Of a stretch of DNA of 64,000 bases, positions 11,180 through 64,000 are shown in pieces (within the stretch, counting starts at the first letter, position 1; every line of letters begins with the position of its first letter). Position numbers and translations under genes: made by a program. The stretch spans positions 18,228,001 to 18,292,000 of the forward strand of contig CM069143.1 in assembly GCA_035221665.1 (NCBI GenBank), given 5' to 3'. Under the pieces are notes generated by a model, which saw only the letters and a program-made list of their open reading frames with translations, searched no databases and was not told the DNA's origin. The stretch is from Okamejei kenojei (lineage: Eukaryota).

Positions 11180-12430
11180 AACTAAATGGCGGTGACCGCG
11201 CCTTGGCGTGGGTCCCCATGTTCACAATGGGGTGAGGCTGGGTCCCCCCCAATGCAAAATTTCCAAACCTCTACCCCCACCCGTTTCCAATTTATTGGGG
11301 GGGTTGAGGTGGCTTTCCACGCCTCACCGGGGGTGCTCCTCCTACGGGCCCAGTGGGAAAGGGGCCCCCGGTGGCAGGGTCTCTTTCTGGAGCGCTAGTA
11401 TGGGTTGTTGGGTGATGGAATGGTTTTCCAGAGAGCTAGTATCCCGACATTGTGGGCCGCGGGAATGGATTCGTGGGCTGGCAGCTCAGTCCAACCCAAG
11501 GCCTGGCATGCTGGCAGCTCACTCCCGCAGCAGGCGGGTGCCGGGCTGGCAGTGGACTCACGGATATTCCTTGAAATTCCATTTCAAGCAGGGTCAGCAA
11601 GGACACCTATTCAAATGTAGTTTCCTACCCATTTCAACCACGGGTGCAAGGCCACCAAATTCAAGTGCAGTTCCTACCAACATCAAGCAGGATGCAAGGC
11701 AATCAATTTCAACGGGCAGGTTCCTACACTTAACTAAGGGTACTAGGCCTTCAAAATCAAGGGCAGTTCCTACCACTTATCTCGGGTGCAAGGCATCAAA
11801 TTCATGTGCAGTTTCTTACTCTTCAAGAGGGCGTGCATGGCCACCCAAATTCAAGTGCAGTTTTCAATACCATTTCAAGCAGGTTGCAAGGCCATCAAAT
11901 TCAATGCAGTGTCATGCCTTTTCAAGCTGGGTGTGGGACCACCAAATAATTAAAGTGCAGTTGCAAATCCTTTTCAAGCAGGGTACAATGGCACAAATTC
12001 AAGTGCAGTTTCTTACCATTTCAAGCTTTTCCAACCTACTAACCAGCAATTTGCTTTTGCTTTTTCAAACCAAAACCAACCAACCACCAGCACATTTGCT
12101 TTGCTTTTTCAAACAACTAACAACCACCATATTGCTTTTTTTCAAACCACATTAATGGCACTCAAGGTCAGTAAATCCTCTCACTGTTTAGTAGACATGG
12201 GTTCCGTTGTTTATTCACGCTCAAAGGGGGGGGGGGACTGAGTGTCTGACCTTCGCTCGCCCCATCTTGCAGAGACTGAGGCAAAATCCACACTTCCATG
12301 TTTTATAGTCCTTCCCCCACCCACCGGCAAGGTCGTTGTGGACAAAATCCTCTTGTCTCGGCACAGCAGAGTGGGACTGGAGTAAGATAGCAAAAATCAC
12401 AGACGTAAGTGGTTGCATTTATTTTTAAAT
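11180..12430 (-). mobile_element. Non-autonomous Helitron-like element, degraded
   Basis: Shares the subterminal modules of the 4609-7867 and 28985-30918 elements (gacattgtgggccg..atggattc.tgggctggcagc; cccatcttgcagagactgaggca...cacacttcc). Confidence 0.6.
11570..12030. repeat. ~48-50 bp minisatellite, ~9-10 copies, inside the Helitron
   Basis: Repeating unit aattcaagtgcagttcctaccatttcaagcagggtgcaaggccacca. Confidence 0.85.
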
Positions 12431-12433
12431 CAT

Positions 12434-14096
12434 GGGGAGGAGGAGGGGGAGGGGGGAGAGAGGGGGGGGGAGAGAAGGAGGGGGAGAGAGGGGGGGAGGA
12501 GGGTGGGAGGAGGGAGGGGGGGAGATGGGAGGGGGGGAGTGGGGAGGGGGGGAGGAGAGGGAGGGGGGGAGAGGGAGGGGGGGGAGTGGGAGGGGGGCGG
12601 AGGTGAGGGGGGAGTGGGAGAGGGGGGGAGAGGGAGGGGGGGAGAGGGAGGGGGGGGGTGAGGGGAGGGGGGGAGAGTGAGGGGCGGAGGGGGGGGGAAA
12701 GGGAGGGGAGGGAGGGGTGGGGAGAGGAGAGGGGAGAGGGGGGAGAGGGGGGGAGGGCGGAGGGTAGAGAGGGGGGAGAGAGAGAGAGGGGGGAGGGAGA
12801 GGGGGAGAGAGAGGGGGAGGGAGAGTGGAGGAGAGCGGTGGGGGAGGGCGCGAGAGGGGTGGGAAGGGAGTGGGGAGGAGGAGAGGGGGAGACGAGGGGG
12901 AGAGAGGGGGAGAGAGGGGGAGAGAGGTGTCGAGAAGGGAGAGAGAGAGGGGGAGAGAGATGGTGAGAGAGAGGGGGGAGAGAGATGGGGGAGAAAGAAA
13001 GGGGGAGAGAGAGGGGGTGAGTTGTGGGGAAGAGAGGGGGGAGTAGAGGGGTGGAGAGAGGGCGGGAGGGAGAGGGGATGAGTGTGAGGGGGTAGGGGAG
13101 AGAGAGGAGGGGAGAGAGATGTGGGGAGAGAAAGGGGGGCGGAGAGGGAGGGAGGGGGAGAGAGGGGGGGAGGGGAGAGGGAGGGGGGGGGTGAGGGGGG
13201 GGTGAGGGGGGACGGAGAGAGGGGATGGGGAGATGAGGGGGGGAGAGAGGGGGAGAGAGGGGGAGAGAGAGGGGGTATAGAGGTGGGGTTGAGAGTGGGG
13301 AGGAGAGGGGGAGAGAGAGGGGGGAGAAGAGAAGGGGAGAAGAGAGGGGAGAGAGGAAAGGGGGATGAGAGAAGGTGGGAGTGAAGGTGAGGGGGAAGAG
13401 AGGGGGAGAGGAGGGAAGAGAGGGGGGAAGTGAGAGGGGGAAGAGAGAGGGCGAGGGGGGAAGAGAGAGGGGGGAGAGGGGAGGAGAAGTGTGGGGTGTG
13501 CAGGGGGGATAGAGGGGGGAGAGGGAGAGAGAAGGGGGAGAGGAGAAAGGGGAGAGAGAAGGGTAGATGAAGAAGGGGGAGAGAAGGGGGAGAGAGAAGG
13601 GGAAAGAGAGAATGGGGGAGTGAGCAGGGGAGAGGGTGAGGGGGAGAGAGGGGGGGCAAGAGAGAGGGGGAAGAGAAGAGGGGGGTTTAGAAGAGAGTGG
13701 GTGAGAGAGAGGGGGAGAGCGAGGGGGAGAGAGTGGGGGAGGAGAGGGGGAGGGAGAGGGAGGGAGTGGGTGCGAGGGGGAGAGATTGAGGGAGATGAGG
13801 AGGGGGGAGTGGAGGTGGGGTAGAGGATGAGGGGTGAGAGGAGGAGGGGGTAGAGGAGGAGGGGGAGAGGATGAGGGGGAGAGGAGGAGGGGGGGAGGAG
13901 GATGAGAGAGAGGAGGTTGGGATAGGGAGGATGGGGTGGTAGGAAGAAGGGGATGTCGTGGAGGCGGGAGAGAGGAGGGGGATAAAAGTCGAGGAACGAG
14001 GGGGTGTGAGGATGGAGCAGAGGAAGAGGGAGGTGAGAGGGGAGGGAGAGGAGGGAAATGGGTTGGGCAAAACAGCGGGAGGTGAGCAGCGAGGGT
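12434..14096. repeat. G/A-rich polypurine low-complexity tract (~1.7 kb)
   Basis: Almost entirely G and A; abuts a gap. Confidence 0.95.
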
Positions 14097-14596
14097 NNNN
14101 NNNNNNNNNNNNNNNNNNNNNNNNNNNNNNNNNNNNNNNNNNNNNNNNNNNNNNNNNNNNNNNNNNNNNNNNNNNNNNNNNNNNNNNNNNNNNNNNNNNN
14201 NNNNNNNNNNNNNNNNNNNNNNNNNNNNNNNNNNNNNNNNNNNNNNNNNNNNNNNNNNNNNNNNNNNNNNNNNNNNNNNNNNNNNNNNNNNNNNNNNNNN
14301 NNNNNNNNNNNNNNNNNNNNNNNNNNNNNNNNNNNNNNNNNNNNNNNNNNNNNNNNNNNNNNNNNNNNNNNNNNNNNNNNNNNNNNNNNNNNNNNNNNNN
14401 NNNNNNNNNNNNNNNNNNNNNNNNNNNNNNNNNNNNNNNNNNNNNNNNNNNNNNNNNNNNNNNNNNNNNNNNNNNNNNNNNNNNNNNNNNNNNNNNNNNN
14501 NNNNNNNNNNNNNNNNNNNNNNNNNNNNNNNNNNNNNNNNNNNNNNNNNNNNNNNNNNNNNNNNNNNNNNNNNNNNNNNNNNNNNNNNNNNNNNNN
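14097..14596. other. Assembly gap
   Basis: Run of 500 N. Confidence 1.
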
Positions 14597-17594
14597 GGCA
14601 GCTATTCGGCCAGTGCTAACCACCCGAATTGGGCGAGTTGTGCAAACTACCATGTAACCATCACGAAATCTGTTGTTTGGCGGTTAACCTTGCAAAAATC
14701 CAAGATGTTATGAAGTTGTTATAACCATGGCCCTCCAATAAGGCCAGCTGAAGCAAGGCAAAAAAGTTCTTCTACAAGAAGTCGAGGACACTAGCCTCAA
14801 GGAAAGATGCTGGTAAGGAATATAACATTTGACAGACGATGAATTAAACTATGTTCCTGTTCAAATTGGGGAAGGATAAAATTGTTCTCGACAATGGCAG
14901 CAGTTGACATCAGATTTGTTCATACCAAAGTGTATTGAAGGTGAAAAATTGATTACTATACAGTCACATAATCACATTTTCCTATCGTAAACTATTTTCC
15001 ATATGAGGAAAATGTGCCTTATTCAGCAAGATTCAGCTCGTTCCATAAGAAGGGGTAATTGACCTTCTCTGTTTATCAAAGTCAACAAGTTCTGTCAAGA
15101 ATATTTTCCCAGATCTAAAAGACTGGGGGATGTAGAATTATCTGATTTTTACGAATTTGAACACATTAGAATGTTTATAGGCATTTCAAAATGGAGAACT
15201 TTACCACGGCAAACATCTCGTGTCCAAAGGTATTATATGCAACCATTGATTTTAAAGAATGCGTATTACGCAGTGACTATTCATGGTGATGATAGAGATA
15301 TATGAAATTTATTTGGAAGACTGAGCTGTGGCAAGTCAGGATCATTGCCGAATGGATTAACTTCAGCTCTAGATTATTTCCAAAATTGGTAAAACCGTGT
15401 TTAGCATTGCTTAAGCTCAGGGGGCATGTGGTAATGGCCTATTTAGATGATTTTCGATTGTTTGAACGCCTCATCTGAAACTCAATCATCAGTTTCAGTG
15501 TAAAAATCAACTTTTGAACAAATGGGATTCTTGTATTCACCCAGGTAAATCTAAATTATCACCAGTCCAAATTATTGATTATCTGTGGGATTTTACCATT
15601 AAATCCAATCACATGTTGGTAACTTTGCCAGGGATAATTGATACATTTTAATGAGACTGTGTTAATCCGTTGGAGAACACGCCCTTTGATTAGACAAGTA
15701 CCCGTTTTATTGGGAAGTTGATGCAGCCTTCCAGCTGTGGCAGTATGGTCCTCTGCAGTATCAACAATACAACTATCAAAGGACAGGCACTGAGAATACA
15801 AAGGGGCCATTTTGATAGGCCTATCCGTTTGTCACTGGGGCGATTGCTGACTTACATTGGTGGATTATCCATGTTTCAAAAAATTTAAGGAAGTTTTCGT
15901 GGAATTCACCGTCCACTGATATTACAGACTGATGAGAGTGCACTGGGTTGGGTGCAACAATATGTCTAGTTTTGGATGCCAGAAGGATGTGGATGAGACA
16001 TCGCTTCCTCAATTAAAGGATTGATTATTTAGAGTTGTTGGGCACCTGGTATGGGCTCAAAGCTTAATGTTCTACAAAGGAGGGATCTGCATGTGCAGCT
16101 CAGATTCACAACACCACAGCAGTGGCATATGTAAAACCACATGGGTGGAGTTAAGTCACAGTCTTGTGATAGACTGCTAACCAGATTTGGAGCTGGTGTA
16201 TGCTTGACCAGGGGGAAATATCTGGCTTTCAGCAACTTTAGTTGCCAGGAAGAGGTCACGTCAGTTAATGACAACTTGAATGATGTTAATCAGGATGTGT
16301 TTAACCAAATGATTGATCAGTATGCATTGCTAGATATTGACTTGTTTGCATCTCGATTAAATCATCAGTTACCTAGATATGTTTTCATGGTAACCAGATA
16401 CTGGGCAGTAGCAGTGGATGCATTTTCGCTGCATTAGGGGGGGGAATGTTTGTGTATGTATTTCCCTTCATTCTGTCTCATCACAAATGATGTTTGCCAA
16501 AAGATCAAGGAGGACACCGCGGAGGTCAGGTTTGGTAAGTGCCAGATTGGCCTACCACCGAGCAGGTTTCCCGTTGTATTACAAATGGCTAGGGAGCCTT
16601 GCATGCTTATGCCCATAATAAAAATCTACAGGTAAATCCAGTCACTGGGGATCAACATCCTTTATAGGATCGTATTGATCTGTTAATTTGCAGATTTTAA
16701 GGAGGCCATACCTGGGGAGAGGACTGTCTCATCGGACGGTGGATGTTCTCACGTCGGCCTGCAGGGGATAGTACACAGCAGCAATATATCACCTATATAA
16801 GGAAGTGGAGCAATTCTGCCTACAGCAGGATATTGTATATCACCACAGCAGGGATCACGGGAAAAATTTTGTTTTATTGGAGTTTGTCAACTCTTAATTT
16901 GACCAAAAAATTAAGTTACAGTGCAATTAATTCAGCCAGAAGTGCTCTGTCTTCTTATATACCTATGAATGCAGAATTGCATACAGTAGGACACATCCGT
17001 TAGTTCACGATTCATGAAGGGAGTTTTCAAATCTAAATCCTCCTAAACTCAGGTATGCCGGTATTTGGAATGTGAGTGAGGTTTTTTATGCTTCTTCGCC
17101 AATGGGCTCCAGTTACATAGCCTATCTGTAGCCAAATTAACTATGAAGGTGGTCATGCTTCTGTTGTGTTGGTTTCAGCCTCAACGTGTACAAACTTTGC
17201 AAAAGCTACGGCTAGATAGAATGCATGTGTCGGCTATGCCATTAAATTTATGTCTATGATTTGCTTAAACATAATATAAAAGAGGAACCATGGACAGGAT
17301 GTAAGATTGTTTTTTCAGCATACCCCGCAGATGATCGTTTCTGTATATTCCCTCACATTTATCTCGTTACATTGAAATTAACTAAACCTCTGAGAAGGAA
17401 CAGAGTTGGCTTTGTTTATTAGTCACAAAAAACCACACAGTAAGGTGTCGGTGCTAAACGATTTCAAGGTCCTCGCGGCCGCAGGATGGTCCAGTGAGCT
17501 AACTTTTCAGAGGTTTTGTCACAAGCCGATTACAAGGCTCGGGGTGTTTAAAGATCAAACTTCAAACTGGTAGTTCTCGTTTAATCTTACTATT
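14597..17594 (+). mobile_element. DIRS1-type retrotransposon copy 1 (5' part lost in gap; YR internal deletion; ICR region missing)
   Basis: Inverted near-copy of ~18350-21340. Carries RT YLDD (gcctatttagatgat ~15437), MT DIDLFASRLNHQLPRY and the YR N-terminus. Ends in the right-terminus sequence ...gtttaatcttactATT. Confidence 0.9.
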
Positions 17595-17802
17595 CTGAAG
17601 GTAACATTCAAGCACTCCACAGCAAAGATCATAGCTCGTGAGCCTCCCCCAGCACTGTGTGTTGAAAAAAATATTTATCAATCCCCAATTGCAAAACTGT
17701 GGAGCTAAGGAGCTCCTCCAGCTCCACAGCTACACAAGATATCTAAACCTCATCAAATTGAAGCCCCTAGGTTAACTTTGATTTTAAATTGCTCCAACAT
17801 TT

Positions 17803-20800
17803 AATAGTAAGATTAAACGAGAACTTCCAGTTTGAAGTTTGATCTTTATTTTATGAGGAGTCCGATTTGAGGGACTACGTGAAATAAAGCCACGTACAGC
17901 CGTTGGTGCGTCAATCTTCAAAGCAGCGGAATGAATTCACAGCTATCAATGACCGAAGTATAACGGTAAGAATGATAAAACTAGAACTACCAGATGAGAT
18001 CTATGAGGTGGGAGCGGAGGGCAACGTAGTCCCTCAACTCGACTTCCTCATAAAATAAAGATCAAACTTCAAACGTGGTAAGTTCTCGTTTTAATCTTAC
18101 TATTTTACTTCGGAGATTCACGTGAGTGACTACGTGAAGACTTCAAAGCACTGTGAATTCACGCCGCTGACTCATATCCGACGTTCACACTGCCTGGATT
18201 GACTCAAACGTCGTTAACAATCAATCATGCATCAGTAATACATTTGTTAAATGAAATAACAGTGGTTAATTACAAACAAATCATAACAAACCCCTCTAAC
18301 TCAGGGGAAAAATATAACAGTACTGACACCAGAATCAGGCAAACCCAACCCCGAGCCTTGAAATCGGCTTGTGATAAATCCTCTGAAAAGTTTAGCTCAC
18401 TGGACCATCCCTGCGGCCGCGAGGACCTTGAAATCGTTTGCACCGACACCTTACTGTGTGGTTTTTTGTGACTAATAAACAAAGCCAACTCTGTTTTCCT
18501 CTCAGATGTTTAGTAATCTCATTGTAACGAGATAAATGTGAGACTATACAGAAGCGATCATCTGCGGGTATGCTGAAAACACAATCTTACATCCGTGCCA
18601 TGTCATGCCTCTTTTTATTATGTTTAAGAGAATCATAGACATAAAATTAAATGGCATCAGCCCGACACATGCATTCTATCTAGCCGTAGCTTTGCAATGT
18701 TTGTACACGTTGGGCTGAAACCAACACCAGAAGCATGACCACCTTCATAGATAATTTTGGCTACTGATAGGCTTGTAACAGGAGCCCACTGGCGACGAGC
18801 CATAAAAACCTCACTCAAATTCCAAATACCGGCATACCTGGGTTTAGGAGGATTAAAATTGAAAAAGCTCCCTTCATGAATTGTGAAACTAACGGAATGT
18901 GTTCCCTACACTGTATGCAATTCTGCATTCATAGATAAATAAGACCAGAGCACTTCTGGCTGAATTAATCGCACTGTAATCTTAATTTTTTGGTCAAATA
19001 AAAGAGTTGACAACTCCAATACATCCGTGATCCCTGCAGTGTGATATACAATACCTGCTGTAGGCAGAATTGCTCCCACTTCCTTATATAGGTGATATAT
19101 TGCAGCTGTGTACTGTCCCTGCAGGCCGACGTGAGAACATCCACAGTTCGATGAGACAGTCCTCTCCCCAGGTATGGCCTCCTTAAAATCTGCAAATTAA
19201 CAGATCAATACGATCCTATAAAGATGTTGATCCCCAGTGACTGACATTTACCAGTAATTTTTATTCTTGGCATAAGCGTGTAAGGCTCCCTAGCCATTTG
19301 TAATACAACGTGAAACCATGCCCGTGTAGGCCAACCTGACACTACCAATACCCCTGAAGCGGAGTCCTCCTTGATCTTTTGCAAACATCTGCTGATGGGA
19401 CAGAATGGAGGAAATACATACACAAACATTCCTCCCCCAATGCAGCGAAAATGCATCCACTGCTACTGCCCCAGTATCTGGTTACCATGAAACATATCTA
19501 GGTAACTGATGATTTAATCGAGATGCAAACAAGTCAATATCTGGCAATGCATATTGATCAATCATTTGGTTAAATACATCCTGATTAACATCCATTCAAT
19601 GTTGTCATTAACCTGACGTGACATCTCCCTGGCAATAAAGTGCTGAAAGCCAGATATTTTGGTCAATACACCAGCTCCAAATCTGGTTAGCCAGTCTATC
19701 CACCAAGACTGTGACTTAACTCCACCCATGATGTTTACATATGCCACTGCTGTGGTGTTGTGAATCTGAGCTGCACATGCAGATCCCTCCTTGTAGAACA
19801 ATAAGCTTTGAGCCCATACCAGGTGCCCAACAACTCTAAATAATTAATCCCTCTAATTGAGAAGCGATGTCTCATCCACATTCCATCTGCCTCCACAACT
19901 AGAAGACATATCTGTTGCACCCCAACCCAGTGCACTTACATTCAGTCTGTAATATCAGTGACGGTGATTCCTCCAAAACCTTCCCTTAAATTTTTTTAAA
20001 CATGGTACTAAAAAAAATCCACCATTGTATGTCAGCAATAGCCTCAGCTGACAACGGCATAGGCCTATCAAAAATGCCCCGTTTGTATTCTCAGTGCCTG
20101 TTCCCTTTGATAGTTGTAATTGTTGATAATGCAGAGGACCATACTGCACAGCTGGAAAGGCTGCAACAACTTCCAATAAAGCTGGCTACTTGTCTAATCG
20201 AAGGCCGTTATTCTCCAACGAGATTAACACAGTCCTCAATTAACTGATTCAATTTATCCCTGGCAAAGTTACCAACATGTAGATTGGAATTAATGGTAAA
20301 TCCCAGATATCAATAACTTTGGACTGATATCGATAATTTAGATTTATCTGGTGAATAACAAATCCCATTTGTTCAAAAGTGATTTTAACAACTGAAACTT
20401 GATGATTGAGTTTTTCAGCATGAGTCTTTCACAACACTCTCTATCATAATATCACTCGAAAAGGCCATTACCACATGCCCTGAGCTCTAAGTAAAGCTAA
20501 CACAGGTTTTACCAATTTAGTAAATAATCTAAGAGCTGAAGTTAATCCATTCGGCAATGTCCTGAATTGCCACAGCTCAGTCATCCAAATAAATTTCAAA
20601 TATCTTCTATCATCACCATGAATAGACACTGCGTAATACGCATTCTTGAATCAATGGTTGCCATATAATACCCTTTGGACACTAGATGTTTGCCCGTGGT
20701 AAAGGTCTCCATTTTGAAATGCCTATAACAAACAAATTTGTTCAAATTGGATAAATCCAGAATAATTCTACATCCCCCAGTCTTTTAAGATCTGGGAAAT

Positions 20801-22536
20801 ATACTTGACAGAAATTGTTGACTTTGATATACAGAAGGCTCAATTACCCCTTCTTATGTAACAACATGAATCTGCTTGAATAAGCACATTTTCCTCATCA
20901 TCTGAAAATAAGTTTACGACTAGGAAAATGTTGACTAGGTAGACTGTCCTTATAGTAAAATCCAATTTTTCACCCTTCAATACACTAAGTATGAACAAAT
21001 CTGATTTCAACTGCTGCCATTGTTTGAGAAACAATTTAACCTTCCCCCATTTGAACAGGAAAAAAAAAACAAAATCAAAAGTTTTTTTTTAATTCATCGT
21101 CTGTCAATGTTTATATTTCCTTACAGCATCTTTCCTTGCGGCCTTGTTGTCCTCGACTTCTTGTAGAGAATCCTTTTTTGCCTTGCTTCCAGCTGGCTTA
21201 TTGAGGGCCATGGTTATAACAAACATCATAACAGTCTTTGACCCTTTTTGCAAGGTTACCCCCAAACAACAGATTTCGTGGTGGTGCACTGGTCGGTTGG
21301 CTCAACTCGCCAAATTCGGGTTAGCACTGGCCTAATAGCGGCCCTCCCGATATTATTAATTTCAAAATGCATTACAAAGGAATGCCAGTTCATCCTGGTG
21401 TGCTTCAACCATATCATTTGTATCAATAACTTACACCACAGCTGTAAAACCTGCTGACAACAGTTTAAAGCACTTTTTTTTAAAACTTCATCTCCTGGGG
21501 CCCTAGCAGGCAAACCCATCTATGCAAATTTGGTGATTAACCACCGGTACCTTCAGGAGATCACAATTAACAGGTGCTTTATAGTTCTTTGCTACTTCCT
21601 CCATAGCTAGCTCCTGTAACTGATGGGAGAGCATATACTGAATGGCTTCGGCCAATTCTACATCAATCGCCTTTCCTGCCTCTACACTCAGCAAACTTCC
21701 CAGCAATGTTCGGAATTACCTCCAACCGAACACCTTTACTGCTCTCCCCCAGCATAGAAACAGTGTCAGCAAACTGCCCTGATAGAACATCCTCCTCACA
21801 GGCAGGATAGTTCTGCAGCCCTGAAACAGGTGCTGCTAGCACAAGCTCTCCATCAGCCTGGCTTGGGCACCACTCCTCCCCACGGAGCTGGTCCCTGTCG
21901 AGCATTCTTTTGAAATAGAATCTCGACGTGGGAGAGCCGTGAGCAAACGGACTCTCCTATGGAGGGTATAACCTCCTGGCCCGACTCATTTACGGGCCAC
22001 AGAGACTTGCCAGTGGCCTTCCACCCTACTGACAAGCCTCCACTGCCCCCCGGCAGTGGGTCCGCAACCACTGGCTGTGTAGCCAGCACCGGACCAGGTG
22101 TACTAGACGGGCCTCCATCCTCAACACTCTCCTGCCACTTTTCCTTTCTACCCCCGGAGCGCCTTGCCAACACCTTCTTCCCTTTCTGCAACATTCTCTA
22201 CCCAAACCGTCGCAGAAAATTAAACATGCGGTAAAATTTTTTAAAAAAACCTTACCTCTTAAACTTAACGAAGAACTGCAAATGCTGGAGATTCGATGGT
22301 GATGTATGGAAGAAGGGTCTCGACCCGCAACGTCGCCCATCTCCTTCGCTCCTTAGATGCTGCTGCACCCGCCGAATTCTCCAGCTCTTCGAAAAAACCC
22401 GCGGTTTACACTTACCGCGTCGGAGGAGTGCTGCTGCTCCAACCGCCCCGACTGCACCACGTCTGACGTCATGACGCACCAACGGCTGTACGGGCTTCTA
22501 TTCACGTAGTCACGTCACGTGACTCCGAAGTAAAAT
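17803..22536 (-). mobile_element. DIRS1-type retrotransposon copy 2 with both termini (defective)
   Basis: Left end ATTttacttcggagtcacgtg (rc, ends 22536), right end cttactATT (rc, 17803), ICR ~18024-18140 with junction cttactATTttacttc. Frameshifted gag (AEAIQYMLSHQLQ), RT (VAAFPAVQYGPLHY), RNase H (INYLELLG), MT (YVFPPF) and YR fragments. Confidence 0.93.
22282..22390 (+). mobile_element. Penelope-derived short repeat inserted in the DIRS leader
   Basis: gaagaagggtctcgacccgcaacgtcgcccatctccttcgctcc...gatgctgc...ctccagc, the same family as 33427-33560 and 49500-49585. Confidence 0.7.
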
Positions 22537-28984: not shown

Positions 28985-30918
28985 TCTATATTACTAAAAG
29001 TCTGATCTTGACCGCTTTTGGCCCACTTTGCTGCGATTTCTGAGAGAACGCCGCCACTTACGGCCGTCATTTTTGGCCACCTCGCTCAGAGCCCCGCTCT
29101 GCCTTCCTGCACCAGAGGATTTTTCCCATCGATTAAAAATGAGAGAGATATTAATGTTTTTTTAAAAATCCCCATTCTCTCTGTTCTCTTTGCTGCCCCC
29201 GCTAGCAGCAGGGGGGAGTGGGGAGGGACTATAATATCCGGAAGTGTCGTGCCTCACTCAGTCTCTGCCAGACCCAGGAAGCGAGAGGGTCACTGCTCTC
29301 TGAGCTGTGAATAACACTGAACGGATGTCTACTCCACAGTGAGTCCCCTTTGATGTGGCTGCTGTCAAATTGTTTAACTTTTTTTTAAAGTTTGTGTTCA
29401 CAAAATGAATTTTGGTTGTCAGGTGGCTGCTTGCTGCCCAATTGTTTGCCTCACTTTTTTTTTAAGCTCGTGTTCACTAATTGAATTTAGTTGTCAGGTG
29501 GCTGCTTGCTGCCCAATTGTTTGCCTCGTCTTTTTAAAAAAAAGTTTGTGTTCACAAAATGAATTTTGGTTGTCAGGTGGCTGCTTGCTGCCCAATTGTT
29601 TGCCTCACCTTTTAAAAAAAGGTTTGTGTTCACAACATGAATTTTGGTTTTCAGGTGGCTGCTTGCTGCCCAATTGTTTGCCTCACATTTTCTTTTTAAG
29701 TTCCTGTTGACTAATTGAATTTAGTTGTCAGGTGGCTGCTTGCTGCCCAATTGTTTGCCTCGTCTTTCTATAAAAAGGTTTGTGTTCACAAAATGAATTT
29801 TGGTTGTCAGGTGGCTGCTTGCTGCCCAATTGTTTGCCTCACCATTTTAAAAAAAGGTTTGTGTTCACAAAATGAATTTTGGTTTTCATGTGGCTGCTTG
29901 CTGCCCAATTGTTTGCCTCACATTTTTTTTAATGTTCCTGTTAACTAATTGAATTTAGTTGTCAGCTGGCTGCTTGCTGCCCAATTGTTTGCCTCGTCTT
30001 TTTAAAAAAAAGTTTGTGTTCACAAAATGAATTTTGGTTGTCAGGTGGCTGCTTGCTGCCCAATTGTTTGCCTCTCCTTTTTAAAAAAAGGTTTGTGTTC
30101 ACAACATGAATTTTGTTTGTCTGGTGGCTGCTTGCTGCCCAATTGTTTGCCTCGCCTTTCTATAAAAAGGTTTGTGTTCACAAAATGAATTTTGGTTGTC
30201 AGGTGGCTGCTTGCTGCCCAATTATTTGCCTCACCTTTTTTTTTAAGTTTGTGTTCACAAAATGGATTTCGGTTGTCAGGTGGCTGCGGCCCAATTGTTT
30301 GCCTCACCTTTTTAAAGAGTTTGTGTTCACAAAATGGATTTTGGTTGTCAGGTGGCTGCTTGCTGCCCAATTGTTTGCCTCATCTTTTTAAAGAGTTTGT
30401 GTTCTCAAAATGGATTTTGGTTGTCAGGTGGCTGCTTGCTCCCCAATTGTTTGCCTTGCATTTTTAAAGAGTTTGTGTTCACAAAATGGATTTTGGTTGT
30501 CAGGTGGCTGCGGCCCAATTGTTTGTCTCGCTGTTTTAAAGAATTTGTGTTCACCAAATGGATTTTGGTTGGCAGGTGTCTGCGGCCAAATTGTTTGCCT
30601 CGCCTTTTTAAAGACTTTGCGTTCACATAATGGATTTTGGTTGTCAGTTGGCTGCGGCAAAATTGTTTGCCTTGGCTTGGCTTTTTAGATCATTGCAACA
30701 GTTGGCTTCCAGCCCAAGAATCCATTCGGCCCACAATGTCTATATTAGCCCTCTGGAAACCAGTATCTTCGGCCCGCAACACCCAAATTAGCGCAACAGA
30801 AAGCCCCCCCCCCCCCCCACTGGCGAGCAATATTGGAATTGGTGGAGAGGTGGAATATTGCGTTGGTGGACAGCCCTCCCGTGTGATGCCAGGACCCAAC
30901 AGGTCCCACTTAATCTAA
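28985..30918 (+). mobile_element. Non-autonomous Helitron with both termini
   Basis: A|TCtatattactaaaagtct 5' end. Hairpin ggacc..ggtcc at 30892-30906, then CTAA (CTRR)|T at 30915-30918. Inserted between A and T with no TSD. Confidence 0.8.
29355..30675. repeat. ~72-78 bp minisatellite, ~17 copies, inside the Helitron
   Basis: Unit tttgtgttcacaaaatgaattttggttgtcaggtggctgcttgctgcccaattgtttgcctcacc(t)n(a)ng. Confidence 0.95.
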
Positions 30919-51533: not shown

Positions 51534-51596
51534 ATTTTACTTCAGAGTCACGTGAGTGACTACGTGAAGAAGCCCCGCCTGGTGCTAGAACGGCAT
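51534..51596 (+). repeat. DIRS left ITR
   Basis: 5' part is complementary to ICR 56148-56183; 3' part is complementary to right ITR 56379-56413. Confidence 0.9.
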
Positions 51597-52072
51597 TACG
51601 TCGACGCTGACGGCAGAAGCAAGAGCTGCAGAGCGCAGCTCCTCGCAGCGGCCGGAACGGACCCGCAGGTAAGTGCAAGAAAAAAGTTAGGGGACGTTCT
51701 AAAAAAGAAGTTACGCTGGTAGAACCAGCAAAAATGAAAGTAAAATTCAAAAAATCAGAGTCACGCTGGCGTACTGATCCAGCCTAGATAATAAAAAATT
51801 GAAAATGGAGAAGTCTCAAAGATAGATTTCGCGGGTAAAAAGATCGTCCCGGGGAGAAGCTAAAGAGTCGGGACAAGAGACTAGTGCGGATCCGGTTCCG
51901 ATACCGGTGGCCGCTGATTCACCCGTTAGTGAGACTACAATTTCTCCAGAAATTCAAACCACGGAGGAAAATGTTCCTAGAAAAAGTAAAAAGAAATCCG
52001 TGAGGCCCGTGGTTTTCTGATGATGACTCTGATAATGAAAGTCCTCCGGATAATAAAGCTATATGGCTTAAA

Positions 52073-53428
52073 ATGGAACATATGGAGAAAGTGCTCCAAA
52101 ATATTATGAGACAAGGGTCAAAGTACCCAGAAATTTCCCAAAATGACCCTGAGGGGATTGAATATCCAGAATATGGCTATGTGCCAAATTGGGAATTTGA
52201 AACTCCAGACCCAGGAATAAGGGTGGAGGAAGTCTCATTGGATGAAATTCCAGGTGTATCAGGGCTGCAAAAGTCAGATCCTGCAAGTGGTGATGTGGAT
52301 TATGAGTGCACACCACAAATAAAAAAGAAGAGGCCATACGTGCCTGATATGGCAAAAGATTTTGCTATACCTGAAGGAAATGGTGAGGCTATGGAAGAAA
52401 ACCTAGCTGCCAGTATTAATTATATGGTATCTCACCAACTTCAAGATTCTGTGATGGTTGAAACAGCAGAATTATATAAAACACCGGAAAATTGCACCTC
52501 ATTGAAGGTACCTGCGGTTAATCCGTCTATATGGACACCTATGACTCCAGGCATGAGAGGACAAGAAATAAGATTTCAAAGAATCCTCAAACTGATTTCA
52601 GCTGCCATTACTGCTTTTGGCAGGCAAATGGAAGGGTCGGAAATGGTTAAAATCCAAAGAGATACTTTGGGCTTATTGTGCAATTCCTTTTATGAAATTA
52701 ATTGTATGAGGAAAATTGCGATTTGGCCCATATTTCATCCAAGGTTTGCAGGTCTGTGTCGATCAAGTGGTGTTCAAGCTCCTGGTTATCTATTTGGAGA
52801 AAACCTGCCTAAACAAATAAGAGAAATGGATGAAGAGGCTAAATCTATTCGCCACATGAGACCTTTCGTTTTTGGACAAAAAAGGTATTTTTCGTCAAGG
52901 AGGGGATTTGATTTTGGAAACAGAGGCAGGAATATGATAAGGAAATATTATCAGCCGGCACAGCCTAATGTTCACCTGTATACGGGGAGAAGGAGACCAC
53001 CACGTTCATATGGAGAGGTACAAAAACTTTATTCTATTCTTAAAGAAACTGTGGACAAATCTCCAGTTGGAGGGAGATTACAAATGTTTTATGATGAATG
53101 GCTTGCCATCACATCTGACCGGTTTATTTTACAAACAGGTACAGGAGCTACAATAACATTTAAAGAAGGTGTTAATTCTACGGTACAAAATAAACCTGCT
53201 TATGGTTTCATGTTTTCTGCTATTGAAGAGGCAGAAATTAATGTAGAAATTGACAAATTGTTTAAAAAAGGTGTTATTGAAAAAACTGTTGAACATAAAC
53301 ATCAATTTGTGTCAAATATCTTTCCGAGAAGTAAAAAAGATGGTGGTTGCAGAATTATTCTGGACCTTACAAACTTTAATACATTTGTCGAGTATAAACA
53401 TTTTAAGATGGAAACGTTCGACATTTGA
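52073..53428 (+). pseudogene. DIRS gag-like ORF running into the RT N-terminus
   Basis: PENC..LKVPAVNPSIW and YLFGENL (gag), then VGGRLQMFYDEW...FVSNIFPRSKKDGGCRIILDL..FN.FV...HFKMET (RT). The true gag start is probably upstream (~51805) and frameshifted. Confidence 0.88.
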
Positions 53429-54019
53429 TATCAGCAGGTTGTTATATGGCTACAATTGATTTAAAGGATGCGTACTATTCAGTACCAATACATTGATTTT
53501 TTCAAAAGGTATTTAAAATTTAATTGGCTGGGACAGCTGTGGCAATTTAAAGCTTTACCAAATGGGTTAAGTTCAGCTCCCAGGCTCTTCACAAAGCTGT
53601 TGAAACCAGCTTTAGCGCAATTAAGAGCACAAAAGCACATCATTATGGCTTATCTGGATGACATTTTAATTATCAGTAATAATCAGGAATCAGCTGGAAA
53701 ATCAGTTTCAGCAACTACAACTTTATTTGAGAAATTAGGTTTCTTGATTCATCCAATTAAGTCCCAGCTGCAGCCAGCACAGCCAATTAACTATTTAGGG
53801 TTTGTGATTAACTCGGTTACTATGTTAGTAACTTTGCCAACGGATAAGATTGATGATATTTTAACGGTATGTAGGGGCCTTATTCACAAACCTTATCCTT
53901 CCATCCGAGAAGTAGCGAAGGTTATTGGTAAACTAGTAGCAGCATTTCCTGCAGTAGAATTTGGTCCATTACATTACCAAAACCTTCAAAGGGACAAAAT
54001 AAGAGCTCTAAAAAAGTGA
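53429..54019 (+). pseudogene. DIRS reverse transcriptase core
   Basis: IDLKDAY (other frame), QFKALPNGLSSAPRLFTKLL, AYLDD and YLGF. Frameshifts near 53420 and 53490; TGA at 54017. Confidence 0.93.
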
Positions 54020-54040
54020 ACAGGCCATTTCGATAGGCCT

Positions 54041-54601
54041 ATGCAATTAGCAAAAGAAGCTTTATTTGAATTGCAATGGTGGATTGAAAATGTCCCACAA
54101 GCTGCTAAAAACATTTTAATACAGCAGCCTGAAGTATTTTTACAAACAGATGCAAGTGCTCTCGGATGGGGGGGCGACAGATACATTTACCAGTTGTGGG
54201 GGCAGATGGACTGTCCAAGAGGAAATGTTTCTCCAAACATATGGTATTAATTATTTAGAATTATTGGGGGCATTTTATGGATTAAAAGCCTATTGTTCTA
54301 CAAAAAGAATCTGCATGTACTGATACAATTAGACAATAAAACAGCTGTTGCATGTATTAATCACATGGGGGGAGTCAGATCGGTATCATGTGATTGTCTG
54401 GTCAATCAGATATGGCAGTGGTGTATTAAGCACCAAATTTGGATTTCAGCAAATTACATCCCAGGTAAAGACAATGTGGTGACAGACAACAGATCAAGGG
54501 TGTTTAAAGACAACACAGAATGGATGTTGAACCCAGTAGTTTTCAGTAAAATTGTGATTCAATATGGGTTACCAGACATTGATCTGTTGCATCAAGATTA
54601 A
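54041..54601 (+). pseudogene. DIRS RNase H
   Basis: TDASALGWG, INYLELLGA, DNKTAVACINHMGG and YIPGKDNVVTD, split by frameshifts. Confidence 0.9.
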
Positions 54602-54933
54602 ATCATCAATTGCCTAAATATGTGTCTTGGGAACCAGATCCAGATGCAGTAGCAGTAGATGCTTTTTCACTACATTGGGGGAATATGTTATTTTATGCTT
54701 TCCCTCCATTTGCTCTGGTTCAGCAATGTCTGAAGAAAATAGAACAAGATTCTGCCACAGGATTATTGGTGATTCCAAATTGGCCGACACAACCATGGTT
54801 CCCGTTGAAGTTAAACATGATTAAAGAACCATATATGTCAATTCCTAGCAGCAGTGATTTGTTAATAAAACCAGTAACCAAAGAAATTCATCCATTACAT
54901 GCTTATATGAATTTGTTAGTCTGCAGGTTTTGA
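54575..54933 (+). pseudogene. DIRS methyltransferase-like (N6-adenine MT-related) domain
   Basis: DIDL(F)ASRLNHQLPKYVSW.PDP.AVAVDAF...W...YAFPPF...IPNWPTQPWFP. Confidence 0.85.
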
Positions 54934-55019
54934 CCAGACCACTACAAGAGCTTGGATTGTCGGATAGAACTATGGATGTTATAGTCGCATCATGGTGAGA
55001 TAGCACTCAGAGACAATAT

Positions 55020-55901
55020 ATGACACATATAAAGAAATGGGAAAATTTTTGTAGACAATCAAATATATCCTATCATACTGTGAACATTGCAAACATATTG
55101 GAGTTCCTTGCCGAGTTGCATTTTGAGCAGCACTTAAGTTATAGTGCCATTAATAGTGCATGTAGTGGCTTATCATCTTATTTAGGACAAATCTCTGACC
55201 AGAAATCAATTGGATCACATCCATTAATATCCAGATTTATGAAAGGAATCGTTAACAAAAATCCACCCAAACCAAGATATACAGAAATTTGGGATGTGAG
55301 CATTGTACTTACTTTACTTAGGCAATGGACTCCAATCGAAGTTATATCATTGGAAAAGTTAACATTTAAATTAGTAATGTTAATGGCATTGGTATTATCA
55401 CAAAGGGTGCAAACATTACAAATGCTACATTTAGATTGTATGCATGTGGCTTCAGATAACATTGTGTTTTACGTTTACGATCTGATCAAACAAAGCAGAC
55501 CAGGGAGAACTGGAGCAAAGGTAATGTTTCAAGCTTATCCTATTGATCCAACTTTGTGCGTAGTTAGACATTTGACTCAATATATAAAAGTTACCAAAAC
55601 TCTTCGAGGTGATGAAAAAGCGTTAATGATTACGCATAAGAAACCACACACAAAAGCTTCAGTACAAACAATTTCAAGGTGGTTAAAACATGTGTTACTG
55701 TTAGCAGGAGTAGACACTGATGTGTTCAAATCTCACTCCACCAGGGCAGCAGCTACGTCCGCGGCGAAGTTACAGGACGTACCACTCGAACACATTTTAG
55801 AAACCGCAGGGTGGTGTAAAGAAGAAACTTTTTCAAAGTTCTACAATAAACCTGTTCGCACAATGACAGGCTTTGGACACGCGGTGTTGGGTTCACTATA
55901 A
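55020..55901 (+). CDS. DIRS tyrosine recombinase, 293-aa open frame with intact catalytic motifs
   Basis: SQRVQ (R), LIKQSRPG (K), HSTR, AGW and FSKFY. An in-frame upstream ATG at 54972 is separated by one TGA (54996). Confidence 0.9.
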   Translation: MTHIKKWENFCRQSNISYHTVNIANILEFLAELHFEQHLSYSAINSACSGLSSYLGQISDQKSIGSHPLISRFMKGIVNKNPPKPRYTEIWDVSIVLTLLRQWTPIEVISLEKLTFKLVMLMALVLSQRVQTLQMLHLDCMHVASDNIVFYVYDLIKQSRPGRTGAKVMFQAYPIDPTLCVVRHLTQYIKVTKTLRGDEKALMITHKKPHTKASVQTISRWLKHVLLLAGVDTDVFKSHSTRAAATSAAKLQDVPLEHILETAGWCKEETFSKFYNKPVRTMTGFGHAVLGSL

Positions 55902-56147
55902 TCACCTGCTTTGTTTCACTATCGATTTATATTATCGATTATGTTATCACTTATATCTTTTATCACTTTGTAATGGTTTTCCCCAGATGTAAAAAAGGGG
56001 GTTATTATATGTTCTTTTATCATTAAAGATTTATGAAAAGAACTAAAACTGATCTGGTAAAAGGTTATTTACTCATGTATGTGTTGACCTAGCCGGACTG
56101 TCGTATGGAATGACTCTACGACATGAAAAACACAGAAGCTTCAAAAT

Positions 56148-56259
56148 CTTCACGTAGTCACTCACGTGACTCCGAAGTAAAATAGTAAGATTAAACGAGA
56201 ACTTACCAGTTCGAAGTTTGATCGTTATTTTATGAGGAGTAACGATGAGGGATTACGTG
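56148..56259 (+). repeat. DIRS internal complementary region (ICR)
   Basis: cttcacgtagtcactcacgtgactccgaagtaa-AAT-agtaagattaaacgag...gattacgtg is the reverse complement of the right end joined to the left end. Confidence 0.93.
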
Positions 56260-56378
56260 CCCTCCACTCCCCACCCTCATAAAATAAATGATCATTTGGT
56301 AGTTCTAAATCTATGATGAGCCTTACTATCTTACTCCGGCTATTATGTTCTGTGTTTTTCATGCCGCTGCTTTGAAGT

Positions 56379-56487
56379 ATGCCGTTCTAACGCCAGGTGG
56401 GGCTTCTTCACGTAATCCCTCATCGTTACTCCTCATAAAATAACGATCAAACTTCGAACTGGTAAGTTCTCGTTTAATCTTACTATT
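56379..56487 (+). repeat. DIRS right ITR plus 3' extension
   Basis: 56409-56487 is the reverse complement of 56181-56259. Confidence 0.92.
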
Positions 56488-59985: not shown

Positions 59986-61053
59986 AAATAAATCATATAC
60001 TTGGCTTAATAAATATTTATGACCTGAATTTGCATGTGCAGGGTTTAGTTTCTACATTTGCAGATGATATTGGCATGCAGAGAAACATATTGTAGTGCGA
60101 GGTTAGGTCCATTTTGCACTACCATGGGTGGTAGTGGAAGCAGGCTTAATTGCAGTGTTCAAAAGAGAGCTGGATTAAAATCTGAAATTAAAATATTTGC
60201 AGGGCTACAGGAAAACAGGAGGGTGGAACTAATTAAATTGCTCACATAGAGCCAGCAAATACTCAGTGGGGGAATAGCCTGCTTCCGTGCTGTCACCTTC
60301 CCAAGTGTAAATACAACATCAATGCACAGACAATTACATTGCAATTTAGCACTTTAAATATCTGTGCCTAAATTCTTACATTGTTATTCAAAACCTTTTA
60401 CACTTTGCATTTCTGTGCCCTTTCATCTTAGTCCTCAGTCATTATAATCGAATGATATTGCTTGAAAATATAATATCTAGGCCCCATCAAAGCTTTCTTC
60501 TATTAGAATCTGTTGCCAAAACCAAATAGACTGGCAAGGTTCAATATGTCAGTTCAAGCTGCTAGTTGTGGTGTGGAATGTATGGGTGGTGGAGCAAAGA
60601 TAAACAAAGCAGAATTCATTTCATACTAGAATATATGGCGATTGACCCAGAGCAACATCAATAAAAGTTCATCTCTGCTGCCGTGTAAGATGATGTAGCA
60701 GGAAGGTACAATTATCTTCTCATTTAAATATTCATCAGATTCTAAAAACAAGGTGCTAAAAATGGATGACAAATAATAGAATGTGCAATACGGTGTGAAA
60801 TCACGACTTGCATCATGCTGTGCCCGCTCACAGCATGACCATGAACCTAAATTGGTGACATTATAAGTGACAGCATTTTAATGAGGGCAGAATCGACATT
60901 TTTTAAGCTATTAGCCAGATTTAATGCAAAATAAATGAGGATTCTACGGACATGTTCTAATTACGTTAATAAACCTTTCAAACAAGAATCTTGGCCCAGG
61001 ACAAATTTCCCTTGGCACATTGAAGCCAGCCTTAAGAACGCATCATGAGGTAA

Positions 61054-64000
61054 AATAGTAGGATTAAATGAGAACTTACCAGTTTGAAGTTTGATCCTTA
61101 TTTTCTGAGGAGTTACCATGAGGGATTACGTGAAGAAGCCCCACCAGAGCGCATGCTTGTCATACTTCAAAGCAGCGGCGTGAAAACACAGAAACCCAAT
61201 AGCCGAAGTAATATAGTAAGGCTTTTAGAAGACTAGAACTACCAGATGATCCTTTAGATTACGAGGGTGGGAGCAGAGGGCACGTAATCCCTCATCGTAA
61301 CTCCTCATAAAATAAGGATCAAACTTCAAACAGGTAAGTTCTCATTTAATCTTACTATTTTACTTCGGAGTCACGTGAGTGACTACGTGAAGATTTCAAA
61401 GCTCTGTGATTTCATGCCGCAGGTACAGTTCCATATGACACACTGCCTTGGTTGACACAGGATAACCAAATAATGTATCAAACATTGTTTAATTTATGCA
61501 ATAAATGTCTTAAACAATAAAATTTTACACAACAGTAATAACCCCTCTTTTTACAAAGGAGAACTCAAACAGAACCCAAAACAGCTTGCCCAATCTTTGC
61601 ATTGAGAGGACAGGTTTGTCAGAAACCCTAAAAGGTTCCTTAACTGGACTATCCTGCGGTGAGGAAAACGTCCTGCGCCCTGCGTACGTTGATGCCGCCC
61701 TTGTGGAGTGATTAAAACACATCAGTGTCTACTCCCACAAAATGCAAACCTGTTTCAGTCATTTACAATAACTGGCACCTGTGGGTTGATGACCAGCGCT
61801 CTTTCAGAGCCTCACTCTTGATGACCTTGATATTATTAGCTCAGAGGCGTAATTACATATAGTCCTTAGATCAATGGTATATTTTAAGCTTATTTTGGTT
61901 CCAGCCATCCCTGGCCTGCTCTATTTGATTAGATCCTATGCATAAAACACAATATCATCTACAGAAGAATGCATTCCAGTCATACCTTTTGCAATATTTG
62001 GTGCTGCACCATGAACATGATCACTTTGAGCGTTAACTTCCTGAAAGGCAGAGATGTAATTGGAGCCCTTTGCCAAAGCAGCGTGAGAACTAACATCCCA
62101 GATTTCTGAATAATGTCTGGGAGGGGTTAAAATACCTCCAATGAATTGGCCACCTAGTGTTGTCCGACCCTTGCCCTAAGTAGGAGGACAAAGAGCGCTA
62201 TAAATTGCACTATAGCTTAACTGGCAATGTAGCCAGGACTCCAATACATCCGGTATGCCTGCAACTTATGATAATATATTTAACTGTAAACAGGACATCT
62301 CCCATTTCTTAATATGACTACATATTATTTTTTAGAAATATTTCTCCAGACCATCGTAATCACATGCATAGTCTGATGGAGGAGCAGTTCCTGCAATAAA
62401 TTAATATGCTCATGTAAAGGGCAACTTTCCTCCTGTCCCAGAGTGAACCAACAAGTTACAGTAATTGGGATGATCATGAATGCTGTGTCCTCCGTCTCAA
62501 ACCAATGGAACCATGCTGTGTGGACCAGTTTAGAACCCACTAAACACCTAAGTGTTGTCATATTCGATTTTGGTGAGACATTGATTGAATGAGGAAGAAA
62601 TGGGGAAGCGTAAGAACATACATCCCCAATGTAGCGAGAATGTATCCTCCGCTACTGCCCCTAGATTTAGTTCCCATGCCGAATACAGGTACTGATAATT
62701 TAACCCAGATACAACAGATCTATGTCTGGCAATCCATACCAGCTAACAATGATTTTGAAACTTTTGGATTCTTAATTCATTTAATGTTTGCCATGGAATT
62801 TACATGACCTTGCATTATCTCTACCTGATAGGTAAATATCTGAGACCCAGGTGTCCCTTGTAATGCACCAGTGCCAGATAAGGCTAGGCAGACTGTTACA
62901 GAATAATGACCTCATTCTACCCATGTGATTGATATGGGTACCAGCTGTAGTATTGTGAATCTGAAACTGCACATGCAATCATGCTTTGTTGAGCAGAATT
63001 CTTTAGGCCATAGAATGCACCCAGTAATTCTACGCAGTTTACCCCAGCCTCTGCAGGGTTAATGCCTCTTTCACATTTTACCTGCCGTCCCAGCCAGACT
63101 TGATATCAGTGGCTCCTCATCCTGAAGCTCCCATCAGTTTGTAAACTAAGGTTATTGAGTCAGATTGTCGCTAGTACATCGCAAGACTTTTGTTACAATT
63201 TTGGCCCTAGCCAAAGTACTGTCATGTTAATTAACCAATGATGACCTCAAATAGCCAATCATTCTAAATAGTACTAATCTAAGTTCAATTAGATGGGTGA
63301 GGACCTAACCTCTCAACAGGTGTGTGGTAGCTGAATATTTATCTTTCAGATCTATGGCTGCCAATATAACACCCTTTTTTATGCATCATCTACCTATAGA
63401 GTTAGTGGTATTGAACCCCAATACCAAACTATGTCCATTTTGTACAAGTGGATGTATTCCGAGATACCTGGATATAGTCCAATATTCGAGATACCTGAAT
63501 ATAGTCCAATATTCAGTTACTGTTTCATAATCTGAATGGATATGGTTTTTGAGGTGGCATCCTGGCCTCAGTTTTAGTCTCATCGTCCAGGTATTCCCCT
63601 AGGTACTAGAGGATCTGCGCAAGGCTGTGAACCGTGGGCTGAGCATAGGCTGGATATTTATTCATAAATATTAAACTAACAAATGGGTATAATTCCTGCT
63701 TCCACCAGTTTTTTATATATTTATTTTTTAGGTCTTTTGCAGCCTTAATTCATGCGCCCTAATGATGCGCTCCTTTAGAGCGATGCACAGTAAACAGGTG
63801 TTTGATATGTGAAATTTTTTCCCCCATTATGAAGTCCTGGAATTGGTGAGGACCATTAATTTGCTGGCCAAATTGTCATCCCCAACTTCACCGGTATGGT
63901 AAATTGCTAACCACATCCGGGACACCTGGAACGTGGCACTTGTGCTTTGGTGTATGCACATAAGCAGTGACACCAACTTCAGGGTCAGCATTCTATTGCC
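61054..64000 (-). mobile_element. DIRS1-type retrotransposon copy 4 (degraded; continues past the window)
   Basis: Right terminus AATagtaggattaaatgagaacttacc. ICR 61281-61393 with junction cttactATTttacttcggagtcacgtg. YR (HSTRAASTYA) and RH (HNTTAGTHINHMG) remnants; RT largely deleted. Confidence 0.9.

Follow-up and report, generated by a model that had tools for sequence, protein, structure and literature searches.

An outer helix and twin CTTTRAA-type motifs beside the ICR of DIRS1-like elements, a possible scaffold for rebuilding the left end

The 3' region of the DIRS1-like elements studied here carries a genuine, apparently undescribed cis-architecture in a known element class. Its general core is an outer helix, P1, whose two arms enclose the ICR (the segment complementary to both ends of the element), with one CTTTRAA-type motif after each arm. 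It is very probable that P1 is real and under selection. P1 and the motifs may quite plausibly form a scaffold that places two template jumps at the left end, a reading drawn from sequence comparison. The portions available of two DIRS accounts (PMC7192593, PMC3266345) give the spacer between ICR and right ITR no role or structure, and hold none of the outer helix, twin CTTTRAA motifs, C-tract boundary, anti-ICR or poly(A) hexamer reported here. What is available of the wider DIRS literature, including bioRxiv 10.1101/2021.08.05.455354, likewise does not describe the fold; the Cappello, Goodwin and Poulter papers, the Repbase reports and the annotation file of PMC3266345 could mention the motifs.

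The window is the whole stretch analysed, 64,000 nt of Okamejei kenojei (GCA_035221665.1, contig CM069143.1, positions 18,228,001 to 18,292,000), and all coordinates are window positions. It holds four DIRS1-like copies:

about 15008-17594, plus strand: e1, ICR and spacer lost
17799-22536, minus strand: e2, DIRS1-like copy
51534-56487, plus strand: e3, DIRS1-like copy
from 61047, minus strand: e4, DIRS1-like copy

The features of e3, with the equivalent regions of e2 and e4, are:

51534..51596, plus strand: left ITR, beginning with ATT
52004..53428, plus strand: ORF1, gag-like, running into the start of pol
53465..54019, plus strand: reverse transcriptase fragment (RVT_1, E 1.2e-15)
54999..55901, plus strand: tyrosine recombinase ORF with HSTR motif
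56022..56027, plus strand: ATTAAA hexamer preceding the ICR, a candidate internal poly(A) signal
56122..56137, plus strand: P1 5' arm of the outer helix, upstream of the ICR
56138..56146, plus strand: first CTTTRAA-type motif (DR1), immediately preceding the left ICR
56147..56183, plus strand: left ICR, 36/37 complementary to the left end (51534-51570)
56181..56259, plus strand: right ICR, 79/79 complementary to 56409-56487
56260..56276, minus strand: C-tract doublets (minus-strand G-tracts), starting at the ICR boundary, degenerate in e3
56260..56339, plus strand: anti-ICR, with arms 56260-56264, 56275-56293, 56296-56306 and 56322-56339
56322-56339, plus strand: pseudo-junction (the last anti-ICR arm), with core ATC at 56328-56330
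56348..56363, plus strand: P1 3' arm
56369..56377, plus strand: second CTTTRAA-type motif (DR2), immediately preceding the right ITR
56379..56487, plus strand: right ITR and right extension, with left-ITR homology over 56379-56431
17799..18170, minus strand: equivalent 3' architecture of e2
61047..61420, minus strand: equivalent 3' architecture of e4

Homology of the e3 left ITR to the right ITR stops just past a CA, which marks the left ITR's inner end and is a putative transcription start. ORF1 found no match in a Pfam search and lies where a gag ORF is expected; the pol frame is broken downstream of the reverse transcriptase fragment. The left and right ICR overlap by AAT, and the ATTAAA hexamer lies farther upstream of the ICR than in most relatives. 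The element ends in ATT, with mixed flanks beyond 56488. This is an abundant family, with 38,491 contigs from run X1 mapping to a 571-nt stretch of e3 and showing mixed flanks at both termini. Copies e1 and e2 stand tail to tail, 205 nt apart (14794-21142), are up to 98-100% alike in places and form a large inverted repeat; e1 lacks ICR, spacer and right ITR, and only the end of its extension is left. Copies e3 and e4 are also tail to tail, with 4.6 kb between them.

The class assignment rests on several features. RVT_1 is found in e3 and in its relative L037. The 3'-end tyrosine recombinase has the HSTR motif and 530 homologues, with PF00589 in nearly all of the 120 listed, and its best named match is a skate protein (54%). 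In e3 the termini are inverted, with NTT ends, and the left and right parts of the ICR, which overlap by 3 nt, complement the two ends of the element. Reverse transcriptase plus tyrosine recombinase, inverted termini with ATT ends, an ICR whose parts overlap by 3 nt and complement both ends, and a short motif shared by ITR and ICR are common to e3 and the DIRS1-like elements of the Cappello ICR model, as set out in the available text of PMC7192593 and PMC3266345. Compared by published description, again from the part of PMC3266345 at hand, the ICR measures 37+79 nt here and 39-45 + 86-88 nt in short-ITR elements such as AcaDIRS1/2 and LgDIRS1/3. Three broken pieces of e3 after the RT/RNase H gave no Pfam match for a methyltransferase, and the intact relative L037 gave a weak Dam match (E 5e-5) below the cut-off. 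Rfam returned six matches, all far below their gathering scores, and no known RNA family; a candidate hammerhead ribozyme in e3 was rejected, as its core-like loop is not kept in e2 or e4.

Relatives were collected by a recombinase profile scan of prokaryote assemblies (31-sequence alignment, six loci) and by the conserved ICR core pattern, which gave at least 120 metagenome loci; viral contigs held no relatives by protein, pattern or alignment. The DIRS-like elements in prokaryote genome assemblies (L001-L006 and P0105; one such recombinase carries the name of a Sedimenticola integrase) are likely host contamination. Loci were oriented by recombinase or left-ICR motif, not by C-tracts (72 rows). 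Removal of loci short of flank and of 12 rearranged loci (spacer inverted in L015, L061, L072 and L118; deletions in L050 and L029; also L018, L019, L039, L096, L100 and L105) left 42 elements in 32 families. Four loci were dropped where the left ICR start was not located (L020, L042, L045, L085), and the 35 complete elements with a located left ICR gave 29 family representatives. Two loci were added by hand: L125, counted within the 29, and L086, which makes 30. Most loci were picked by one ICR motif, so the sample stands for one group; its repeat sizes resemble those of short-ITR mollusc elements in the tabulated part of PMC3266345 available. Two loci, L008 and L053, are only about 2.3 kb long with ends and P1 intact, which suggests non-autonomous derivatives. 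In the four loci with inverted spacer, spacer and right ITR are inverted together between ICR and extension, which is either an assembly error at the inverted repeat or real.

P1 was significant against shuffles in 23/29 families and fell short of significance in six. With arms cut by motif position alone, own pairs scored 21.6 vs 10.1 for cross pairs, the own arm was strictly best in 19 of 28 families, and the own-pair sum of 606 compares with a maximum of 400 in 100,000 permutations; the arms are only 25% alike between families at the median. By duplex energy, the own arm came first in 13/29 families for the true interval vs 1/29 for an upstream control interval, in which one row is invalid, its flank being too short. 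P1 is also present in three loci found by recombinase alone (p 0.002-0.026); it was not detected (p 0.75) in L005, which comes from a long-ITR branch and in which the searched core is missing. Mismatches amount to 41/428 in P1 vs 84/2325 between ICR and extension, and those of P1 are common within families. Being family-wide and more frequent than in the ICR/extension, they indicate that P1 is not simply recopied each cycle. At 56125, in the 5' arm, a G>A variant makes up ~41% of X1 depth; no partner change in the 3' arm is found among the variants listed, which come from contigs with the two arms unphased.

A CTTTRAA-type motif comes after each arm, and the second of the two was located in 28 of the 29 families. 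The motifs sit at the edges of the copied repeats: judged by eye in 13 full-length elements, left-ICR homology begins no more than 2 nt from where DR1 ends, and in 11 of 13, also by eye, right-ITR homology begins -1 to 5 nt after DR2. At its other side, ITR homology stops 0-4 nt past a CA in 12/12 resolved rows, and a strict initiator-like pattern occurs in only 7/13 (background 15%). In the left ITRs, GCGCATGCGC and CACGTG, presumably an NRF1-like site and an E-box, fill the part that would be missing from the transcript.

In the available text of PMC7192593, rebuilding of DIRS ends from an incomplete transcript has had one model since 1985, and an ICR requirement was shown only in 2020: the minus-strand cDNA copies the right repeat and then the ICR, which restores the ends. 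The same source gives DIRS-1 cDNA as single-stranded and mostly linear, with the ICR needed after first-strand synthesis. In the proposed scaffold P1 joins two of the three copying boundaries, each of which has a conserved signal. P1 with its two motifs would hold two reverse transcriptase landing sites side by side. Were transcription to start at the CA, the 3' end of the minus-strand cDNA would share about 1-5 nt with the right ITR, a homology so short that the end would presumably need positioning; retroviral reverse transcriptases can clamp 2-nt duplexes, according to the portion of PMC3035444 available. In the first jump, the cDNA 3' end would move to the right ITR beside DR2; in the second, after ITR copying, it would move to the left ICR beside DR1 by way of a shared TCTCA-type motif. 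Minus-strand G-tracts, possibly as a quadruplex, may then stop copying at the ICR end. D. discoideum DIRS-1 transposes with a marker between ICR and right repeat (PMC7192593, as far as available), which argues against extending the scaffold to all DIRS elements. With the helix, the twin motifs and the C-tract boundary, every predicted jump or stop is tied to a short sequence and becomes testable, and the same features can serve as markers for annotating DIRS ends.

Hepadnaviruses offer the nearest working parallel. From what is available of PMC8632529 and PMC10534774, their cis-pairings include epsilon/Phi on RNA and hM/h3E/h5E on minus-strand DNA, together with the repeats DR1/DR2, so that long-range pairing stands beside short direct repeats where the reverse transcriptase jumps; in our elements, too, long-range pairing adjoins the inferred jump sites. 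The likeness is one of working principle only, with no sequence relation. In the same portions of these sources the hepadnavirus repeats are themselves the jump homology and the template-switch pairing is proven by mutants, whereas here the CTTTRAA motifs stand immediately beyond what is copied, the guiding role of the pairing is a prediction, and the jump sites are deduced from homology boundaries.

The third boundary is marked by C-tracts: in 29/30 families they start 0-2 nt past the point where ICR and extension cease to be complementary. A four-tract motif is found at this place in 13/29 families vs 64/101,212 background windows, and L005, despite its missing core, has it too. The corresponding G doublets are absent throughout from the plus strand of the sampled families' spacers. 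A quadruplex appears in the predicted fold of only 8/30 windows (RNA parameters), and an arrangement of four G3 tracts with short outer loops is absent from the window copies. Alternatively, poly(C)-binding proteins could recognise the C-rich repeats on the RNA. Strand-specific G-tracts at discrete places are shared with the quadruplex sequences of plant LTR retrotransposons; compared with the part of PMC3902901 available, the motif here differs in starting where ICR copying would end, the stop itself being inferred and the motif degenerate in the window copies.

A different role for P1, which we consider unlikely, would place it on the RNA, masking an internal poly(A) cleavage site or its downstream element so that read-through transcripts carry the ICR and right ITR. 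In 15/28 families an A[AT]TAAA hexamer precedes the left ICR by 35-130 nt, mostly at -45 to -77, and this count exceeds the shuffles (mean 4.2, maximum 11 in 2000). Poly(A) cleavage falls 15-30 nt past the hexamer, which here would be at or just before the P1 5' arm. However, the hexamer is absent in 13/28 families, the P1 3' arm is synthesised 200-300 nt further on, P1 has few plus-strand G.U pairs (2/346 columns), and the CTTTRAA motifs and C-tracts at copying boundaries stay unexplained. Masking and scaffold can coexist, and the scaffold model for its part leaves the hexamer upstream of P1 unexplained. Mismatch type was rejected as proof that P1 works on the minus strand: its lean to A.C (10 vs 2 G.T, p 0.039) is not robust, with p 0.057-0.59 under other settings.

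Within P1, e3 has a further fold, through which the sequence-only reading first came upon the region; this is its least general part, and that reading missed the generality of P1, the CTTTRAA motifs, the C-tracts and the poly(A) hexamer. It had described the ICR-to-ITR spacer as a covarying antisense copy of the ICR forming a structural switch. All five pairings that it listed are present: 56122-56137/56348-56363 (P1, 16/16), 56172-56189/56322-56339 (16/18), 56198-56208/56297-56306 (one bulged U), 56220-56237/56275-56293 (one G.U and one bulge) and 56247-56251/56260-56264 (5/5). T56296 looks private to e3: C stands there in about 95% of X1 depth and pairs with G56209. The stretch 56110-56375 folds into a hairpin of -83.4 kcal/mol as RNA (z -7.8, equalled by 0/200 shuffles) and -51.0 kcal/mol as minus-strand DNA (z -8.5). 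Copies e2 (17925-18168) and e4 (61175-61420) repeat this pattern, and the quoted P1 arms of e3 and e2, the gatcN pair and the pseudo-junction cores ATC, ATA and GTT are as described.

The claimed covariation holds for P1 and hardly at all for the anti-ICR helices, and P1 is itself no anti-ICR because its arm lies upstream of the ICR, which starts at 56147. Among the 52 pairs of the four inner helices in e2-e4, 39 are invariant, four changed on one side, one on both, and eight are only broken; the whole-structure covariation score of 0.118 stays below that of a control slid by two columns (0.127) and is reached by 13/500 shuffles. As to the switch, the fold is real and, as had been predicted, mutually exclusive with pairing of the ICR to the right extension: once the extension is present, a 79-bp ICR duplex replaces it (-176 vs -83 kcal/mol). 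The anti-ICR is not general, and covariation inside it is weak.

A spacer complementary to junction and core is found in 5/30 families, namely e2, e3, e4, L037 and L125 (p at most 0.004), and is not significant in the other 25, including L086 with the same core variant; as a general feature of DIRS elements the anti-ICR fails, being limited to these five of the families sampled, and alone it matters less than the rest of the architecture. A short helix to the ICR 3' end occurs in 6/30. The anti-ICR is present in L037 even though its recombinase is only 47% identical to that of e3. Under strict scoring the window spacers reach 32-43 with their own ICR and 15-29 with the L037/L125 ICRs, and the L037/L125 spacers 37-43 with their own and 27-34 with those of the window. 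Inside a group, e4 and L125 each find a better partner than their own ICR, and a lenient ICR-vs-spacer cross-score does not favour own partners among e2-e4. That the anti-ICR tracks the ICR between groups at 47% recombinase identity calls for selection or repeated copying, and the anti-ICR is probably under selection. On the scaffold reading it would be a lineage-specific inward extension of P1 that keeps the ICR template folded until the second jump. Its presence goes along with a decayed four-tract motif: all four tracts are complete in 13/24 families without an anti-ICR vs 0/5 with one (p 0.048).

In the sequence-only reading the anti-ICR is a functional switch that would keep the ICR sequestered as long as no termini are available, and could time circle formation or limit perfect dsRNA; this we regard as doubtful. 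In its favour, the fold is more stable than the ICR's own hairpin in each of the five carriers (in e3, -83.4 vs -66.2 kcal/mol as RNA and -51.0 vs -27.3 as minus-strand DNA) and loses to the extension duplex, and it is kept in e2-e4, L037 and L125, tracking group-specific letters beside the junction. Against this stand its absence from 25/30 families, L086 among them, the single two-sided change in 52 pairs, and the point that an RNA ending before the extension would leave nothing to switch to. Replacement of the ICR's own hairpin by the anti-ICR was considered and dropped: carriers still have that hairpin.

We think it similarly improbable that the anti-ICR is a functionless relic of one or more fold-back ICR duplications, or is refreshed by template switching, so that only P1 and the motifs matter. 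The hairpin centre coincides with the ICR end, as fold-back copying would produce; spacer-side changes are one-sided and often break pairs; occurrence is patchy, from the full form to the short helix. A tree of 45 recombinase loci, in which L125 and L086 have no recombinase, has deep supports of 19-34 and cannot show whether the carriers form one clade or have a common origin. However, persistence at 47% recombinase identity is hard to explain without selection or repeated copying, and paired spacer sites are better kept in e2-e4 than unpaired ones (35/52 vs 16/36 invariant, p 0.048; upstream region 23/57). The complement of ACTTACC is spoiled in all five carriers, by a deletion common to four and a substitution in one; this amounts to about two events and argues weakly against a relic.

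An accessory role of the pseudo-junction, with the recombinase binding or recombining there, was another suggestion of the earlier reading and is very improbable: although it matches the circle junction in 16/18 letters in e3, its core is not ATT in e2, e3, e4 or L037, L125 has it displaced by one base, none of the 24 loose ends listed falls there, and 25/30 families lack it.

The ICR's own hairpin, of left with right ICR, shows a strand bias: in the ICR sense, which is that of the RNA and of the minus strand's rebuilt ends, G.T exceeds A.C by 30 vs 7 and three scorings agree, p values for such strand-bias counts being optimistic as families are not fully independent. The inner anti-ICR helices have no A.C/G.T lean. 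The integron attC site is a folded single-strand recombinase substrate, and both systems combine a tyrosine recombinase with an imperfect hairpin formed by the junction sequence; this likeness concerns the ICR's own hairpin rather than the spacer and rests on the 30 vs 7 bias. The conserved ICR core (56190-56225; for example in L034) forms a stem with a GAG/GAA internal loop that tops this hairpin and, with its AAC...GTT flanks, resembles integron attC cores. A fuller scheme, speculative and on balance unlikely, would see in this group of DIRS elements a complete cis-signal set for end rebuilding on single-stranded cDNA: a pseudo-symmetric helix whose arms each bear a CTTTRAA landing motif and direct two micro-homology jumps, a G-quadruplex stop at the ICR end, a product junction folded as recombinase substrate and, in one lineage, an antisense ICR replacing the quadruplex as a kinetic latch.

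We finally note some other features. (i) The right extension of e3 contains GGTAAGT at 56461-56467, in the same place in relatives, presumably a 5' splice-site/U1 consensus; its complement belongs to the locus-finding pattern, so that its conservation is partly due to locus selection. (ii) CAGGTAAGT at 51666-51674, about 70 nt inside the left ITR end of e3 and with a similar donor in e2, possibly marks a 5' intron. (iii) A G/A-rich low-complexity repeat of about 2.2 kb, including a 500-N gap, occupies 12419-14700. (iv) Tandem arrays lie at 29376-30727 and 11593-12016, with units of 72-79 nt and about 48-50 nt.
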